Virus record (IMG/VR): IMGVR_UViG_2706794695_000003 | Source of the DNA: a virus | Lineage: Duplodnaviria; Heunggongvirae; Uroviricota; Caudoviricetes | Reading direction: 5' to 3' (one strand) | Length of the DNA: 9,386 nt | Part shown: positions 1,438 through 9,386 of the stretch, piece by piece | Position numbering within the stretch: position 1 is the first letter of the stretch | Layout of the letters: every line of letters begins with the position of its first letter | Notes under the pieces: model-generated | Databases searched by the model: none | Told to the model about the DNA's origin: nothing | Seen by the model: the letters and a program-made list of their open reading frames with translations, nothing else | Translations under genes and position numbers: made by a program

Positions 1438-3171
1438 TTAAAGCGAGCGGATCCCGTAGGACTCAATGTGGTCAGACAGCGTGTCTTCTTTCTCGTACAG
1501 CATGGCTCTGCCAACCGCCATAATCAGCGCAACTGCACCATCGATTTTGTTTTCCGCCTGCTCTTTGACGGGTTTCACCACATCATCGTTACCCGGCATG
1601 TTTTTGCCGACCACGTTGCCGATACACCAGGTCATGATGGGATTGCCGTCATGATGAAAACGTCCCGATTCAATCGCTGCTTCCAGCTCTTTCATCGGAT
1701 CGGACATATTGGTGAAGTTCTGGACGATAGTGACGGGATTCAGGTCTTCATCAGCAAGGTCATGTGACAACCCGGTCGCCCCGAAGGGGTCGATGGGTGA
1801 CTCACTGACCGGGCTGATTTTGTTCGCCGCTTTGGCCTCCTCGAGGATGTAGCGATAATCCACCTCCGCACCATCGGTAACGGTCAGAACGCCCATTTCC
1901 ACCCATTTCTGAAAGCGTTCGGCTGTCCGTCGATCTTCATTTTTCTCGACGCTGTACACCGTGTCATACGGTACCCAGAAACGCGGGGCCACACTGTAGT
2001 AATGCGTTTTACCGTCAATCTCGCGGGTATAAAGTCGCGCCATGCTGTTCATATCCAGCTTACGCGCCAGGTCAAAGGCCAGAATGCACGGCTGCCCCTC
2101 GAACTGCTCAAGGGTCAGTGATTTATCCTCGCAGCTCTGCCAGCTCACCAAGTTGAAATACGCCGAACGCGCCGACACCCAGATATTGAGGTGTTTTGTT
2201 TTAAAGACGTTTGCCAGACGGGCGTTATTTTTCGCACGCTGCTGCTGACTTAACAAAAATTCGCGATAAACCGACACGCCAATATTTGGATTGGCTTTTT
2301 CCAGCACCTGCGGGCCGGTCCAGTCGTCACCTTCATCAACGGTATAGATGATCCCGAACAGTTCATCGTTAGGCACCGAGCCGTTGAGCATCTCGATGAC
2401 TTCCCGCCGCTTGTCGTAGCACGGCCCCTCAATGTTGTACCCGGCGGTGGTGATGGCCCACATCAGTGGCTGACGTCGCGCCCCCATCCCGGTAAGCATT
2501 GTGGTATAAAGCGCATCGGTGGCATGCTCGTGATATTCATCAACCACGGCACAGTGGGGTGATGAACCATCACCTGGGTTGCCGATCAGCGGTTCAAACC
2601 GCGCGCCATCCTCCGGACGGTTCATGTTTGAGGCGTTAACCTCAATCCCGAACGCTTCCGTCAGCATGGGTGTGCGTTTACACATCAGTCGCGCCGGGCG
2701 AAAGACTTCCCACGCCTGTTTCTCTGTCGTGGCACCGGAATACACTTCCGCGCCAAACTCGTTATCACAGGCAAAACAATACAGGGCAACACCGGCAGAG
2801 ATTGCTGATTTGCCGTTCTTACGGGGGATTTCGGTGTACACCTCCCGGAAGCGGCGCAACCGGGTGCCTTTATTGACCCAGCCAAACGCACAGCAGATCA
2901 CAAATAGCTGCCACGGCTCCAGCGTGATGGGCATCCGTTTGAATGCCCACTCCCCCTTGGTGTGCGGCAACAGCTGAATAAATTTCGCGGCCCGTTCAGC
3001 CAGGTCCTTGTCGAAGCGGTAACGAAACGACTTACTTTTTTCCGCCATCAGGTCATCAAGATGGCGCTGGCAGGCCTGAATCACAAACTGGCAGGCAACA
3101 ATCTTTCCGCGCACGACATCCCGGGCATACTGATTTGCAGCATTTACGTTGGGGTAAGATTTCCGGCTCAT
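1438..3171 (-). CDS. terL: Terminase large subunit
   Basis: 577-aa ORF with a Walker-A-like motif (EIPRKNGKS) and a nuclease-like C-terminal half; ATG at 3171..3169 overlaps the stop of the upstream small-subunit gene (ATGA). Gene order HNH, terS, terL, portal is typical of HK97-like packaging modules. Confidence 0.92.
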
Positions 3172-3662
3172 GATTCGATAATTTTCAGAAACGGGTTAGT
3201 GGCTTTCTTCTGCCCCGCCAGGCCAATCAGACGCTGGCGGCTGCTGGGGTCGAGTCCGAGCATTGCCCCCGTGCTGCTCATCTCGGACTCCTGTTCTTTT
3301 TTGGCGGTCAGCTCCGGATTTTTGACCCTGCCGCCCATTGCACCGGTGATGGTGTTGCCCTGTATGGCAATATTTTTCACGGCACGTCGCCAGAACTCAT
3401 AGGCCACGCACCACCGCTCAAGTACCGCCAGGTCAGTCACGCACAGCAGGCCCTGACCGCAGAGTTCTTTGGTTGTCAGTTGCCACATGATCGTGGCGAG
3501 AGGGAGATCTTCTTCAGCGAACCACTCTGGTGGCTCAACACCTTTGATGGGCGTAAAAACAGGTTCATCTTTGTTCAGGGCTCGCTTGCCGGGGTTTCCG
3601 GCCAGCGCCTTGCGCGCCGTTGGCTTGGGGCGACGCCCGGAACGCCCCGCCGTTCCAGCCAT
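3168..3662 (-). CDS. terS: Terminase small subunit (P27-family-like)
   Basis: Basic, Gly/Pro-rich N-terminus ([29 protein letters not shown]…) typical of P27-type small subunits. The track start at 3671 is a GTG inside the Shine-Dalgarno; the real start is taken as ATG 3662..3660, with AGGAG 8 nt upstream. Stop TGA 3170..3168 overlaps the terL ATG. Confidence 0.8.
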
Positions 3663-3704
3663 ATGCGGCACTCCTGGTTAAATTTCATTTTTCGCGGGTA
3701 TAAA

Positions 3705-3765
3705 AAAACGATGGGGCGGGCAGTCCGGAAGACGTCAGGTCACAGGGATTTGCCCCGCCCCTCCC
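3705..3765. other. GC-rich dyad between the HNH and terS genes; candidate cos site or terminator
   Basis: 8-bp G/C arms (3713..3720 ggggcggg, 3754..3761 cccgcccc) flank about 33 bp that contain GACGTC. On the minus strand the 3' arm is followed by ATCG and a run of 7 T. In HK97-like phages cos lies between the HNH gene and the small terminase gene. Confidence 0.3.
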
Positions 3766-3783
3766 TACAAGTGAGAATAATTA

Positions 3784-4134
3784 TCACCGGATTCGTTCGC
3801 GCGCTGTTTTCGCTTTATGGCAGGGCCAGCACAGACTCTGCAGGTTGCTGTCTGCGTCTGTTCCGCCATGCGCTTTCGGGATGATGTGGTCGACGGTTTT
3901 CGCCTCGCTCACCACACCGACACGCAGACACAACTGACACAGACCTTTATCGCGCTTCAGAATACGGGCACGAATCACCGTCCATTTTGAGCCATAGCCA
4001 CGCTGGTGGCGGCTCAGTCCGCGCTGGTGCTGCACCCAGCCTTCACCGCGATGTTTATCGCAGTAACCCGAACTGTCTGTGGTTGTACCTGCACATCCAC
4101 GCTTACGGCAGGCACGTGGGATTAGTGATGGCAT
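3784..4134 (-). CDS. Phage HNH endonuclease (terminase-associated)
   Basis: 116-aa ORF rich in Cys/His (…CDKHRGEGW…, …DHIIPKAHGG…NLQSLCWPCHKAKT…) with a zinc-binding HNH fold pattern; ATG 4134..4132 with GAGGT 4 nt upstream; directly upstream of terS as in HK97-like phages. Confidence 0.88.
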   Translation of the reverse strand: MPSLIPRACRKRGCAGTTTDSSGYCDKHRGEGWVQHQRGLSRHQRGYGSKWTVIRARILKRDKGLCQLCLRVGVVSEAKTVDHIIPKAHGGTDADSNLQSLCWPCHKAKTARERIR

Positions 4135-4176: not shown

Positions 4177-4425
4177 CTACTTAATGCACTGAGTGCGGAT
4201 ATACTCCTGTGCCCCTTCCAGTTGCATCTGCATCGTCATCAGCCGCTCTCTGAGGGTGAAATAATCCCGTTCAGCGGTGTCTGCCAGTCGGGGGCTGGTT
4301 GCATTATCCACGCCGGAGGCGGTGGTGGCTTCACGCACTGACTGACAGACTGCTTTGATGTGCAACCGACGACGACCAGCGGCAACATCAGCGCGCAGAG
4401 TTTCATTTTCAGCTTTCGCATCAGC
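4177..4425 (-). CDS. Rz: i-spanin Rz, C-terminal 82 codons (5' part lost in the N-masked gap)
   Basis: Visible translation ADAKAENETLRADVAAGRRRLHIKAVCQSVREATTASGVDNATSPRLADTAERDYFTLRERL… closely matches my recollection of the lambda Rz C-terminal half. The upstream end runs into the N-run at 4426. Confidence 0.85.
   Translation of the reverse strand, partial: ADAKAENETLRADVAAGRRRLHIKAVCQSVREATTASGVDNATSPRLADTAERDYFTLRERLMTMQMQLEGAQEYIRTQCIK
4239..4421 (-). CDS. Rz1: o-spanin Rz1 lipoprotein, embedded in the +1 frame of Rz
   Basis: 60-aa ORF MRKLKMKLCALMLPLVVVGCTSKQ…PPPPP… with a lipobox (VVGC) and a proline run; ATG at 4421..4419 lies just outside the N-run; wholly inside Rz in another frame, as in lambda. 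Confidence 0.8.
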   Translation of the reverse strand: MRKLKMKLCALMLPLVVVGCTSKQSVSQCVKPPPPPAWIMQPAPDWQTPLNGIISPSESG

Positions 4426-4700
4426 NNNNNNNNNNNNNNNNNNNNNNNNNNNNNNNNNNNNNNNNNNNNNNNNNNNNNNNNNNNNNNNNNNNNNNNNNNN
4501 NNNNNNNNNNNNNNNNNNNNNNNNNNNNNNNNNNNNNNNNNNNNNNNNNNNNNNNNNNNNNNNNNNNNNNNNNNNNNNNNNNNNNNNNNNNNNNNNNNNN
4601 NNNNNNNNNNNNNNNNNNNNNNNNNNNNNNNNNNNNNNNNNNNNNNNNNNNNNNNNNNNNNNNNNNNNNNNNNNNNNNNNNNNNNNNNNNNNNNNNNNNN
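4426..4700. other. N-masked gap (275 N)
   Basis: Run of n. Hides the body and 3' end of the endolysin gene and the 5' part of Rz. Confidence 1.
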
Positions 4701-4790
4701 ACCACCTGGGCCAGTGATTAACACAGATGCTATAGCAACAGCCCCACCACCAATAGCAGCTGCAACAGCCTTGCGTAATGATGGCGACAT
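4701..4790 (-). CDS. SAR endolysin (phage-21 R-type lysozyme), N-terminal 30 codons only; remainder masked
   Basis: ATG 4790..4788 overlaps the holin stop (TAATG). [30 protein letters not shown] is a Gly/Ala-rich weakly hydrophobic signal-anchor-release segment, matching my recollection of the phage 21 R N-terminus. Confidence 0.7.
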
Positions 4791-4963
4791 TATTCACCTC
4801 TCGCAGCCTTACGCTTGTCTTCTCTTATTTTGAAATACAGATTTGTCAGATAAGTCAGAAGCCCCAGAAGCAGACTTCCCAGCACACCAATCGCAGCCCA
4901 CTGTGATGGACTGACCTGATCCAACCACTGCAAAAACCAGTAGCCGGCACTGCCGGCGGAGGT
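4790..4963 (-). CDS. Pinholin (phage-21 S-type holin), C-terminal 57 codons; N-terminus masked
   Basis: Visible translation [57 protein letters not shown] has two transmembrane segments and a charged tail, matching my recollection of phage 21 S (about 68-71 aa); stop TAA 4792..4790. Confidence 0.8.
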
Positions 4964-5192
4964 NNNNNNNNNNNNNNNNNNNNNNNNNNNNNNNNNNNNN
5001 NNNNNNNNNNNNNNNNNNNNNNNNNNNNNNNNNNNNNNNNNNNNNNNNNNNNNNNNNNNNNNNNNNNNNNNNNNNNNNNNNNNNNNNNNNNNNNNNNNNN
5101 NNNNNNNNNNNNNNNNNNNNNNNNNNNNNNNNNNNNNNNNNNNNNNNNNNNNNNNNNNNNNNNNNNNNNNNNNNNNNNNNNNNNNNNNNNNN
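4964..5192. other. N-masked gap (229 N)
   Basis: Run of n. Hides the holin start and whatever lies between the tRNA cluster and the holin. Confidence 1.
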
Positions 5193-5255
5193 GAGTCAGA
5201 CATTCCCACACAATATTGTGTCAGTGCAAATAACAACCTTCGTCTCAAATCTCGC

Positions 5256-5330
<75 letters not shown>

Positions 5331-5333
5331 ATA

Positions 5334-5409
<76 letters not shown>

Positions 5410-5411
5410 GC

Positions 5412-5488
5412 TGGCCCACCACCGAGGACTCGAACCTCGCACCGTCAACTTAGAAGGTTGATGCTCTATCCGGATGAGCTAGTGGTGG
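5412..5488 (-). tRNA. tRNA-Arg (anticodon UCU)
   Basis: 77-nt cloverleaf: acceptor CCACCAC/GTGGTGG (unusual C1-G72), D-stem GCTC/GAGC, anticodon stem TCAAC/GTTGA, loop CTTCTAA, T-arm CGAGG-TTCGAGT-CCTCG, CCA encoded. Confidence 0.75.
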
Positions 5489-5489
5489 T

Positions 5490-5566
5490 TGGTGGCCCTT
5501 GCTGGACTTGAACCAGCGACCTGGCGATTATGAGTCGCTCGCTCTGACCAACTGAGCTAAAGGGCC
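5490..5566 (-). tRNA. tRNA with anticodon CAU; likely Ile2 (lysidine, ileX/ileZ-like) rather than Met
   Basis: 77-nt cloverleaf: acceptor GGCCCTT/AAGGGCC, D-arm GCTC-AGTTGGTCA-GAGC, anticodon loop CTCATAA, T-arm GCTGG-TTCAAGT-CCAGC, CCA encoded. Overall close to my recollection of E. coli ileX. Confidence 0.75.
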
Positions 5567-5755: not shown

Positions 5756-6319
5756 TTAAAACCGCATCAACCGCTCCACCAGTTGCTCTTTACGGGCAAC
5801 GATCCACCCGTGTTGCTCCAGATAAAATTTAAACCGTTCCAGAGTACATACCATCGCATCGGCGGGTACCTTTTCCGTGAACTCAACCTGACCGTGTTTA
5901 TCGAAGTGGCTCAGTAATGCGCATCCATCATTTTCGATAGATGTGTTTTGTGCCGCTGGTGGCTGTTTCTGGTTGAAATAACAGTCTTCCAGTTTTTCGA
6001 ACACTTCCCACGCCTGATCGGTTTCGAGCATTTTGGCGTGACGGGCTGCGCCACGTTCTGTCCAGAGGATGAGGGAGCGAACGTTACGGGCAATTTTCAC
6101 AGAAACTCTTAAAGAGTTTTCGTTCTTCAACTCTCGTAACGCATCACCTTCTATCAGGAAAAAATGTTTACCTTCTATAAACCGTTCTTTGTTTCGATTG
6201 AAATTGTTTGTCAAACGCTGGCGCTCTGTTCCGTACAAATCAGCCAGCAGCTCTGTTGTCATGACAGGAAGATGGTTATGCGTAAGTGACGGGAGTTTTT
6301 CAATAGACGTGCGATTCAT
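5756..6319 (-). CDS. ORF6N-domain protein (antirepressor-like DNA-binding N-terminus, C-terminal domain of unknown function); accessory cargo gene
   Basis: ORF open from 6517 (GTG) to stop TAA 5758..5756. Preferred start is ATG 6319..6317, with AAGGA 7 nt upstream, giving 187 aa. The N-terminus (…LPVMTTELLADLYGTERQRLTNNFNRNKERFIEGKHFFLIEGDALRELK…) fits the ORF6N pattern as I recall it; the C-terminal ~100 aa is unrecognised. Confidence 0.7.
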   Translation of the reverse strand: MNRTSIEKLPSLTHNHLPVMTTELLADLYGTERQRLTNNFNRNKERFIEGKHFFLIEGDALRELKNENSLRVSVKIARNVRSLILWTERGAARHAKMLETDQAWEVFEKLEDCYFNQKQPPAAQNTSIENDGCALLSHFDKHGQVEFTEKVPADAMVCTLERFKFYLEQHGWIVARKEQLVERLMRF

Positions 6320-6525
6320 AGACATGTCCTTTCGAATATTTTGATTTACCCCTTTTGAGAGGGTGACCGGGCGCTCAAAACCGTCGAAAGTCGGCGGGCG
6401 TATTTCCATTGCTGGTATTGTATTAGCCGCACACCCGGTCATAAACCAAGAATTCTGGACACAAAAAAACCACATGGCTATCGGGTGTGGATACCGCTTT
6501 CGAGGTGTTTTGAGCACCGCGGGGA

Positions 6526-6554: not shown

Positions 6555-6679
6555 CACCGTCAGGTTCCAATCATCGGGTGGTGAGACGCACAGGGTTGGA
6601 ACTACCGGGAAACCGACCGGCGAGCTTTTCAGCTCCCCCATGCGCCCCACCATAATTCAGATGTGCGCGTGCATACGAC

Positions 6680-6704
6680 AATAAAAAACACGCTCGCGGC
6701 GTGT
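6680..6704 (-). terminator. tR'-like intrinsic terminator ending a short pR' leader RNA
   Basis: Minus strand: stem ACACGC/GCGTGT (forward 6688..6704) with a 5-nt loop, followed by TTTTTTATT; about 75-80 nt downstream of the predicted pR' start. Confidence 0.6.
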
Positions 6705-6765
6705 GTCTGTCGCGGTCTCTATCCGGGGTTCCAATCCCGACGCCAGATTTTGCTGGCGCGTGAGG

Positions 6766-6795
6766 AATATAGCCCCGGACAATGTGTCTGGTCAA
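6766..6795 (-). promoter_or_regulatory. pR'-like late promoter immediately downstream of Q
   Basis: Minus strand: -35 TTGACC (6795..6790), 18-nt spacer, -10 TATATT (6771..6766), starting 5 nt after the Q stop. The early transcript carries hairpins GCGCCAG-N6-CTGGCG and CGGG-N8-CCCG before the terminator, so the qut region would be here. Confidence 0.55.
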
Positions 6796-6799
6796 GCAC

Positions 6800-7186
6800 C
6801 TACATAATTCGTTCTACGTATCTGTCCATCTCCAGCCGGATATCAAGCATCATCAACATGCCATCAATAACCCCTTCCGCTTTCTGCAGGCGCTTGCCAA
6901 TACAGGTATCCGAACACCCATGTTTCCGTGCCAGACTCATAAAAGTCATTCCACCTACGTAATAATCCACCAGCAAATCGTGCAAATCCTGATTTTTCTT
7001 GTTCAACCGGGCCATACAGCCACAAATTATCATTGCATCATCATCAGAACACTGAGGGCGTGATTTCACTTTCGACGGAATTAACCCTTTAAAACCAGCA
7101 GCGATCGACGCCCAGGATACATCTTCATGAGTGTTTGCAGCCCAAGCCCCCCACCGTTCCATAACCTGCTGAATATCACGCGCCAT
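6800..7186 (-). CDS. Q: Late-gene antiterminator Q (short QuuD/phage-21-like type, not lambda-Q type)
   Basis: [61 protein letters not shown]…[23 protein letters not shown]… matches my recollection of the about 127-aa QuuD/Q21-family proteins. Start taken as ATG 7186..7184 with AGGTGA 5 nt upstream (the track ORF extends to 7207); stop TAG 6802..6800; followed by pR'. Confidence 0.85.
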
Positions 7187-7547
7187 CGTTATCACCTGTG
7201 ATTTCATAAATCTTCACGCCCAGTCGCCCACCAGGAACGAGCTGACCGCGCACAATATTGATTTCATCAAACTGCTCGTCGTCTATGAGTAGTCCGGCAT
7301 GCGTCAGCGCATCCAGTGGTGCTTTCAGGATATTGTCCAGGTCACGACGGCGCTTATCCGGTGGCTCTGCAATAATCTTTATCGCCAGCCTTCCGGACAG
7401 GTTTAATTTCAGCCGCTGCTGGCGAACAATTAGCGTCACATCACGGCGATAACGCTCACCAACTTTTGATACAAAATATGTGCTGCCACGACGTCGCCAG
7501 TAAGTATTCACCGTCGGCGGATAAGGTAAAATAAACTCATGGCGCAT
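7176..7547 (-). CDS. rusA: Holliday junction resolvase RusA
   Basis: 123-aa ORF with RusA-like sequence (…[12 protein letters not shown]…, …[27 protein letters not shown]…); ATG 7547..7545 overlaps the upstream stop (TGATG); sits in the nin-region position just before Q. Confidence 0.88.
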
Positions 7548-7804
7548 CAGCGCAGCACCTCCTGCACCATTTTTTCAAACTTTCCAACTTTGGTTTCCAG
7601 CTCTGCCACACAATCAACGAGCTCATCCACCGCTTTTTGTGCGCGATGTTTCGCCTGCATCAGTTCCCTGAGCGCTGGCACCATATCCCGACGAATGGCA
7701 TCTTTTGTTACACCTGTTTTTTCCAGTTGTTCCGCCTGTCGCAACATTTCCTGCGCGTGTTTACGCAATTGTTCAGAGGTAAAAGTCATTGTCTGGTTGT
7801 TCAA
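7547..7804 (-). CDS. Small charged, probably coiled-coil, hypothetical protein in the nin-like region
   Basis: 85-codon ORF. TTG at 7804..7802 overlaps the helicase stop and has GGAG 8 nt upstream; the alternative ATG at 7789..7787 gives 80 aa. Sequence is rich in E/K/R/Q/A. No family recognised. Confidence 0.5.
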   Translation of the reverse strand: MNNQTMTFTSEQLRKHAQEMLRQAEQLEKTGVTKDAIRRDMVPALRELMQAKHRAQKAVDELVDCVAELETKVGKFEKMVQEVLR

Positions 7805-9192
7805 AAGAAACGCTCCATCTTACTGCTGTCGGTACGTGTATTGCTGTATCTGCGCGGCTGGGGCTGCCGCATTGGGGTGGAAAGAACCTGTGCGCTTTCC
7901 TGGTCCACAGGCAGAAAATGTCCGTTATAAAAACGCCGGTAAATCGTCCCCAGAGAACCGTTACGTTGTTTCGTGATATTAATTTCTGCTATGCCTGTAG
8001 CCTGTGTATCCGGGTTGTACACTTCATCCCTGTAAAGCATCAGAATGATGTCTGCATCCGCCTCTATTTCTCCGGAATTTTTCAGGTCTGAGTTCATGGG
8101 ACGTTTATTGGGTCTGGACTCCACACCGCGGGAGAGCTGGCTCAGCGCAATCAACGGAAAACCACCGGATTTTGCCAGGCCTTTAAGCCCCTTTGAGATT
8201 TCACCCACGGCAAGGTCATGACGCCCCGTGGTTCGGGTTTTTATCAGCCCGAGATAATCAACCACCACCAGCGCCGTTTCCGGATGTTTAATCAGATGGT
8301 GTTTCGTTGTTGCGCATATCTCATCAATGGTCAGGTTCGCCTGGTCCACCATCCAGATATTGCGCCCGGTCATCCGCCCCACCCCTTGTGAGAAACGCGC
8401 CCAGTCTTCATCTTCAAAGTGAGCCACAGATTTCAGGCGTGATACTGGCATCCCTCCAGCCGCAGACACCATACGTTCACCAATCTGGATGTTCGCCATC
8501 TCCATGGTGAACAGAAGCACACCATGCCCCTGCTCAGTCACCTTGTCGATGATGTCCAGCGCAAGTTCGGTTTTCCCCATCGAAGGACGGGCGGCAATGA
8601 ATACCAGGTCTCCGGGCTCCATACCGCCTGTTTTTGCGTCCAGTTCATCAATACCGGTCATCAACGTCCTGGATTTCTCCAGCCCCTGATTCCGGCATTC
8701 AACACGCTCAACCACTTCCGGAAGCACATCATCAATATGTACCGGCTGAATGACGCCCTTTCCTGTCGACAGTGTGACCATCATGTTCTGCGCATCCTTC
8801 AGGGCATCTTCAGCTGCTTCACAGGTATGCGCATCACGTAATTTCTGCAGCGCCTCATTCAGTGTTTTTTCTGCATCGCGCAGTGCGGCATTGCGCCGCA
8901 ACGCTGCAACATAGTGCTCCAGTGAAGACTTCACCCAGGTTTTACGCCCGGTATCAGTAATCACCGGGGCAAGTTCCGGCATCTCATTACACAACAGCAC
9001 GGGGTCAATCACTCCTGAAACACGGGCCTGTCTGCAGATGCCTGTGTAGATATCCCGATACGCTCGTACAGAAAAAATGTCCGCCGGTAGTGTGATCAGA
9101 ATATCCATCACTTCATGATCTGCCCCACGCAGAAAGAATGCGCCAATGACAGCGCCTTCCAGGTCATCATTACGCCAGACTGGTGTTGTCAT
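7801..9192 (-). CDS. Replicative DNA helicase, DnaB family (phage-encoded)
   Basis: ATG 9192..9190 with GAGGT 8 nt upstream, giving 463 aa (the track ORF extends to 9333 through an unlikely N-terminal extension). Walker A ARPSMGKTELALDI, DnaB-like N-domain and RecA-like C-domain motifs; stop TGA 7803..7801. Confidence 0.9.
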   Translation of the reverse strand: MTTPVWRNDDLEGAVIGAFFLRGADHEVMDILITLPADIFSVRAYRDIYTGICRQARVSGVIDPVLLCNEMPELAPVITDTGRKTWVKSSLEHYVAALRRNAALRDAEKTLNEALQKLRDAHTCEAAEDALKDAQNMMVTLSTGKGVIQPVHIDDVLPEVVERVECRNQGLEKSRTLMTGIDELDAKTGGMEPGDLVFIAARPSMGKTELALDIIDKVTEQGHGVLLFTMEMANIQIGERMVSAAGGMPVSRLKSVAHFEDEDWARFSQGVGRMTGRNIWMVDQANLTIDEICATTKHHLIKHPETALVVVDYLGLIKTRTTGRHDLAVGEISKGLKGLAKSGGFPLIALSQLSRGVESRPNKRPMNSDLKNSGEIEADADIILMLYRDEVYNPDTQATGIAEINITKQRNGSLGTIYRRFYNGHFLPVDQESAQVLSTPMRQPQPRRYSNTRTDSSKMERFF

Positions 9193-9386
9193 GCAGCCAC
9201 ACCTCTGATACAAGAACGGTAGCTGGGCCAGTTGAACGACAACCAGTTGCGCCCCCCGTCTGTGATCCTGTCGGCAATGCGGGGGCTGATGAACGCTGGA
9301 TTTGCCCCTATATTTCCAGACACCTGTTATCACTTAACCCATTACTGGCTTGCTGCCGTAGATATTCCCGTGGCGAGCGATAACCC

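Follow-up and report, generated by a model that had tools for sequence, protein, structure and literature searches.

The physical ends of virion DNA have been determined for the Shigella flexneri serotype-converting phage SfI, whose termini were sequenced by run-off and, when compared with the prophage, were found to leave "a 10 nucleotide (5'-TGCCCGCCCC-3') gap" (PMC3636060). In HK97, the boundaries of the database record are the cos ends, with 10-nt 3' overhangs (PMC9410871; 10-nt 3' overhangs are also given in PMC11331095), and cos cleavage is stimulated by the HNH protein gp74 (PMC9410871, PMC11331095). The nonamer site of the HK97 TerS lies at +15..+29, where C:G pairs stand beside an A-tract of essential flexibility (PMC11331095). 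The cos of lambda is tripartite, cosQ-cosN-cosB (PMC4669245). Sites of the type described below are already known from SfI, SfII, SfIV, SfV and phiP27, and the feature is in this sense an ordinary one.

The window, that is the whole 9,386-nt stretch of DNA that was analysed, has all of its genes on the minus strand and shows the layout of a lambdoid prophage's late region, with a packaging module of the HK97 type. Read along the genes, a DnaB-like helicase gene (7801-9333) is followed by RusA (7176-7547), the antiterminator Q gene (6800-7207), a gene for an ORF6N-domain protein (5756-6517), four tRNA genes (5256-5566) and the lysis genes (about 4239-5248, partly masked by N runs). These are succeeded by the gene for an HNH endonuclease, the accessory nuclease of HK97-type terminases (3784-4134; PF01844, E 1.6e-16), by terS of the Terminase_4 / P27 family (PF05119, E 3.9e-20), by terL, which encodes an HK97-type ATPase and nuclease (1438-3171; PF03354 and PF20441), and by the portal gene (88-1335; PF04860, E 3e-107). 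HNH, intergenic site, terS, terL and portal, all on the minus strand, therefore stand in the order expected of an HK97-type module. The HNH protein matches HK97 gp74 with 34% identity over 70 aa (E 2e-10) and the solved phage HNH endonuclease 5h0m over its full length (E 1e-12), while TerL is 26% identical to HK97 gp2 over 522 aa (E 8e-31). At the DNA level terS is 98% identical to that of SfI, SfII and SfIV. The open reading frame of terS spans 3168-3671, but its true start is probably the ATG at 3662 (terS 3168-3662), judging from the annotation of SfV and SfI, where this ATG is the start, and from an AGGAG at 3675-3671 ahead of it. The HNH-terS gap, put at 112 bp in the original prediction, agrees with the open reading frame as called, whereas it becomes 121 bp when counted from the likelier ATG.

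Several other features lie between Q and the lysis genes. Just downstream of Q, also on the minus strand, gathering-level Rfam matches were obtained for c4-a1b1 targets (6720-6772), isrK (6683-6759) and the C4 antisense RNA (6574-6657), and an sRNA-Xcc1 match (6357-6440, minus strand) falls inside the ORF6N-domain reading frame 5756-6517. These matches suggest that the segment 6357-6772 is an IsrK-like c4/antirepressor module of the P1 type that has been inserted between Q and the lysis genes. The four tandem tRNA genes, located between the Q region and the lysis genes, are Met(cat), Arg(tct), Thr(tgt) and Gly(tcc), and a strong terminator-like hairpin is found upstream of them at 5680-5659. 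The lysis cassette contains the two masked N runs of the window, 4426-4700 (275 nt) and 4964-5192 (229 nt). The reading frames 4239-4790 and 4790-5248 are consequently unreliable because they were called across these runs, and the Rz1 and P21-type holin Pfam matches in the lysis reading frames come from unmasked parts only.

On the gene strand the intergenic region reads ...TGA taattattctcacttgta GGGAGGGGCGGGG CAAATC cctgtgacctGACGTCttccggac TGCCCGCCCC atcg TTTTTTT atacccgcgaaaaatgaaatttaacc AGGAG tgccgcat ATG. From its sequence it is very probably the cos of a lambdoid prophage whose packaging module (HNH, terS, terL and portal) is of the HK97 type, and it falls into one family with the sites of the Shigella phages SfI, SfII, SfIV and SfV and of the E. 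coli phage phiP27. The 10-mer 5'-TGCCCGCCCC-3', the equivalent of cosN, has a single occurrence in the window (minus strand, 3722-3713) and is identical to the mapped end of SfI. In the GenBank record of SfI, the end ...GGACTGCCCGCCCC aligns to 3713 and the restart GTCGTTTTTTTATACCCGCG... aligns to 3712. Moreover, phiP27 (NC_003356) carries a 10-nt misc_feature labelled "cos-site", CGCCCGCCCC, which aligns to 3722-3713, and the HK97 record ends directly after the aligned 10-mer, in the same register. The comparison with cos sequences of HK97-like phages that had been proposed as a check accordingly bears out the original prediction of a cos in the HNH-terS gap of an HK97-like module. When the HNH-terS stretch was compared with phage records by megablast, SfII, SfIV, SfV and SfI were recovered at 97.5-98.4% identity, and the matches to the Sf phages begin inside the gap because those records are linearised at cos. 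At the level of sequence, both the identity to a mapped cos and the conserved architecture can be regarded as established.

Both SfI run-off reads leave a gap and not an overlap, which implies recessed 5' ends and hence 3' overhangs. The SfI paper makes no statement on overhang polarity (PMC3636060), and we infer 3' from the gap result together with HK97. By analogy, nicks at 3713|3712 on the minus strand and at 3722|3723 on the plus strand would generate 10-nt 3' overhangs. From sequence homology the ends of the prophage genome, in minus-strand reading, would be 3712 on the left and 3713 on the right. For annotation this sets the genome ends of the prophage and would place the element among those that package from cos with the help of HNH and have 3' overhangs, for which specialised rather than generalised transduction is expected.

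The architecture around the cut was compared by joining the ends of the HK97 record and setting them beside the window, SfV, phiP27, the Klebsiella phage Kp4882-1, phi467 and ST64B. All seven share a G-rich box, (T/G)CAAATC, 24 nt ending in AC and a C-rich 10-mer, the last of which is in HK97 the final 10 nt of the record and therefore the physical end. In the window this conserved upstream element (3747..3765, minus strand) consists of the G-rich box GGGAGGGGCGGGG at 3765-3753 followed by CAAATC at 3752-3747, and it is separated from the cohesive end by a 24-nt spacer (3723..3746, minus strand) of fixed length and variable sequence that ends in the invariant AC. The G-box/CAAATC is nearly invariant over 22 aligned representatives, HK97 included, as is the start of the 10-mer (YGCC). 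The 24-nt register fits 88 of 89 related junctions, which comprise 80 IMG/VR loci found via the HNH protein together with reference phages. Viral contigs were also scanned independently for GGGGNGGGNCAAATC and ACYGCCNCC separated by any 10-40 nt, a pattern that leaves out the overhang type of the window itself; 119 of the 120 matches were spaced by precisely 24 nt, with 46 distinct spacer sequences, and the remaining locus has 22 nt. The constancy of the length across 46 spacer sequences indicates that the spacing is conserved and the spacer sequence is not. The predicted cohesive-end 10-mers of these IMG/VR loci (L094-L213) fall into at least 15 variants, among them CGCCGCCTGA (67 loci), CGCCCCCTTA (13) and CGCCGCCTTA (12).

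HK97 and the P27/Sf group have the G-box/CAAATC in common, and it persists even where terS and the sequence beyond the cut have been exchanged; this conservation suggests a function of its own. By analogy, it may tentatively be seen as a cosQ-like recognition element for the TerL nuclease and/or the HNH protein, which positions the second nick or triggers termination of packaging, although we hold this role to be somewhat less probable than not. Among the literature covered, which is partial, no description of this upstream element was found, and the HK97 work maps only the downstream TerS site (PMC11331095). With its strict spacing, the G-box/CAAATC is a cheap and testable candidate for the site that directs HNH/TerL nicking or the termination of packaging in a large group of phages.

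On the other side of the cut, a T7 run (3708-3702, minus strand, +5..+11) is followed by ATACCCGCG and AAAAATGAAATTTAA at 3701-3678. The minus-strand U-run that had been noted beyond the dyad is indeed present as this T7, begins 4 nt past the terS-proximal dyad arm, and forms the first part of the downstream block. Such a block, T5-7 and then ATACCCGCGAAAAATGAAA, is kept in all relatives with an Sf/P27-type terS regardless of the overhang variant, and is replaced wholesale by the unrelated CCCTTCCTCACATCGCCGCAGGTTCGAAAA... where terS is of the phi467 type (24% identical). Since the T-run belongs to a conserved block that tracks the type of terS, the segment 3678..3708 (minus strand, +5..+35) appears as the best candidate for the TerS-binding site, equivalent to cosB, by analogy with HK97. 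A transfer of the HK97 TerS site by protein homology was rejected, as BLASTP of terS against HK97 gp1 gave no detectable similarity (E 6.9), gp1 had no match in Pfam and terS had none among PDB sequences; the assignment of the TerS site hence rests on analogy and conservation. The terS found here is of the Terminase_4 / P27 family, like those of SfI and phiP27, which makes the site a member of the P27/Sf sub-group and not of that of HK97 proper. The high-identity segment shared with the Klebsiella phage continues about 100 nt into the terS coding sequence, so that mosaic exchange is inseparable from selection on the non-coding block, and the conservation of the latter could in part derive from a recombined mosaic segment instead of selection on a binding site.

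In the lytic cycle, cos on concatemeric DNA would be recognised by the terminase holoenzyme, whose TerS most likely binds at +5 to +35, in the T-run / ACCCGCG / A-tract block that directly follows the cut. The TerL nuclease and the HNH protein would then nick the two strands 10 bp apart around TGCCCGCCCC, leaving 10-nt 3' cohesive ends. A stimulation of cos cleavage by the HNH protein in this element is suggested by the homology of HNH and TerL to their HK97 counterparts. Packaging would start at the terS side, run toward lower window coordinates and on around the genome, and stop at the next cos, in which case the G-box/CAAATC would be the last DNA to enter the head.

This scheme presumes a prophage that is still active. 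The sequence might instead be a relic of cos in a defective prophage that has lost its packaging function; many prophages of E. coli and Shigella are cryptic, and a 9.4 kb window whose lysis region contains masked N runs leaves room for a defective one. However, HNH, terS, terL and portal are all full-length reading frames with complete domain matches, and the stretch from the G-box to the terS ATG differs from that of the active SfI at 3 positions, none of them within the 10-mer. We therefore consider a relic unlikely, though the best placed of the alternatives to a functional cos, and the prophage is presumably still capable of packaging.

A functional cos also accounts for the hairpin-like appearance of the gap, for which termination of transcription is another explanation. 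The 8-bp G/C dyad around 33 nt that had been described is present, with the arms GGGGCGGG at 3713-3720 and CCCGCCCC at 3754-3761 on the plus strand (3761-3754 and 3720-3713 in gene orientation), 8/8 complementary and 33 nt apart. The dyad and the T-run could together form a Rho-independent terminator of the lysis/HNH transcript, instead of or besides cos, and a G/C-rich hairpin (-27 kcal/mol) leading into the U-run is in fact possible in the RNA of the gene strand. Nevertheless, the fold is no better than that of shuffled sequences (z -1.09 and -1.49; 31/200 and 12/200 shuffles at least as good), and the equivalents in phiP27, Kp4882-1, phi467 and HK97 have z values of -1.2 to 0.0. The stem encloses a branched interior of 33 nt, and a consensus scan for terminators (loop 3-8 nt) made no call; likewise, a scan of the window with Rfam revealed no RNA family overlapping 3660-3790. 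Across 8 pairs in 22 representatives, 73% of the cells are paired compared with 71% in shuffles and 55-70% in slid registers, and no covariation was detected in the dyad stem of these 22, with only 1 pair changed on both sides. The pairing thus mirrors the opposition of G-rich and C-rich composition and not a maintained helix, and the dyad as a conserved structure was rejected on these pair counts.

The distribution among relatives also argues against a terminator. Most of them keep the G-box, yet their overhang (CGCCGCCTGA, CGCCCGCCAA or similar) is not complementary to it and no T-run is adjacent; the T-run goes with the terS-type block and not with a hairpin, as in Kp4882-1, which has the T-run although its arms are complementary over just 5 bp. 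Finally, transcription has to read through the site to reach terS, terL and the head genes, which follow it in the same orientation, and a gene for the antiterminator Q is located upstream. A weak terminator would be overridden by Q-modified polymerase in lambdoid phages, where the terminase and head genes downstream depend on such read-through. A short-loop stem directly before the U-run, a stability exceeding that of composition and compensatory changes were all absent. Termination as the main function was rejected (z -1.5 to 0.0 over the window and four relatives, no scan call), and the second role that the original prediction had allowed for, as terminator of the lysis/HNH transcript, is unsupported in view of z values of -1.1 to -1.5, the lack of covariation, the 33-nt interior and the upstream Q. 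Altogether we regard a terminator as improbable.

A far weaker case can be made for the dyad as the working core of the site, either a symmetric target for a protein or a cruciform, with the cut made at or near the central GACGTC. In its favour, the dyad is rare by chance (0.08% of gap shuffles), and the first base of the SfV GenBank record, 1 nt beyond GACGTCT, corresponds to window base 3729. According to the SfI paper (PMC3636060), however, the cos of SfV had been postulated and not mapped. The mapped SfI ends and the HK97 ends put the cut at the 10-mer, 17 to 27 bp from GACGTC, the centres of the dyad and of the staggered nicks do not coincide, and HK97 and most relatives keep the architecture without dyad and GACGTC, which makes this reading barely credible.

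Under the preferred interpretation as cos, the dyad is a by-product of the G-box and the C-rich cohesive end. Its HNH-proximal arm (3761-3754) lies within the conserved G-box, and its terS-proximal arm (3720-3713) lies within the cohesive end, which consists of that arm plus 2 nt. Taken alone, the dyad is only mildly unusual. A perfect 8-bp inverted repeat with a spacer of 3-60 nt occurs in 7.4% of dinucleotide shuffles of the gap, and one with all-G/C arms in 0.08% of them; the whole window contains 14 seeds of 8-mer inverted repeats, where 8.3 +/- 3.9 would be expected, and a single all-G/C seed, for which the expectation is 0.1 +/- 0.36. The GACGTC called central is present in the spacer at 3731-3736 (3736-3731 on the minus strand), but about 3.5 nt off the spacer centre. 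It carries no weight, since a palindromic hexamer in a 33-nt spacer has a chance of roughly one in three by rough arithmetic. Among the aligned relatives it is confined to Sf-type spacers, and as a cut site it was rejected, being absent in phiP27, HK97, Kp4882-1 and the commonest class. As for the dyad and GACGTC as the core of cos, the predicted cut flanks the terS-proximal arm (3722-3713) and not the dyad centre or GACGTC. Judged by the aligned sequences, the informative signal is the homology to mapped cos sites and not the dyad, and neither the dyad nor GACGTC defines the cos family to which the window belongs; conspicuous as they are, they are not a functional hallmark of the site.

Homologous HNH-cos-terS junctions are present in 1294 of 5426 complete E. 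coli genomes. Among the known systems, the serotype-converting phages SfI, SfII, SfIV and SfV share with the window 98% DNA identity from cos through terS, the cohesive end TGCCCGCCCC, an identical 24-nt spacer with GACGTC, the T7 / ACCCGCG block and the position between HNH and terS. The three substitutions that separate the window from them between the G-box and the terS ATG are G for T before CAAATC, C for T after it and A for G at +1. In the HNH gene and in the sequence preceding the G-box, the window resembles phiP27 (93.7%) more than the Sf phages. With a phiP27-like HNH side and an Sf-like cos-terS side, the junction is a mosaic.

The joint itself lies at cos (3690-3790), where the HNH and G-box side is nearest to phiP27 (L001) and the spacer, cohesive end and terS are nearest to the Sf phages. 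In the relatives the sequence upstream of the cut and the downstream block are likewise combined in various ways, so that cos appears to be a recombination boundary.

The Stx2e phage phiP27 has the G-box, CAAATC, the 24-nt spacing and the 8-bp dyad in common with the window, as well as the ACCCGCGAAA block, and its annotated cos-site CGCCCGCCCC differs from the cohesive end at 3722-3713 only in the first base. Its terS is 48% identical, and it differs in having another spacer sequence without GACGTC and T5 in place of T7. HK97 shares the G-run, CAAATC, 24 nt ending in GAC and a C-rich 10-mer at the physical end, and the homologous terL and HNH genes; downstream of the cut, C:G pairs are again followed by an A/T tract. 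In contrast, a dyad is lacking, as the overhang CGCCGCCAAA of HK97 cannot pair with the G-run; its terS is without detectable similarity, the sequence downstream is unrelated, and its HNH gene and cos are about 300 bp apart. Lambda follows the same logic, with an upstream element that is packaged last, a nicking site and a downstream region bound by the small terminase beside the small terminase gene (PMC4669245), but it has 12-nt 5' overhangs, an unrelated terminase (gpNu1/gpA), no HNH partner and no sequence similarity to the site described here.
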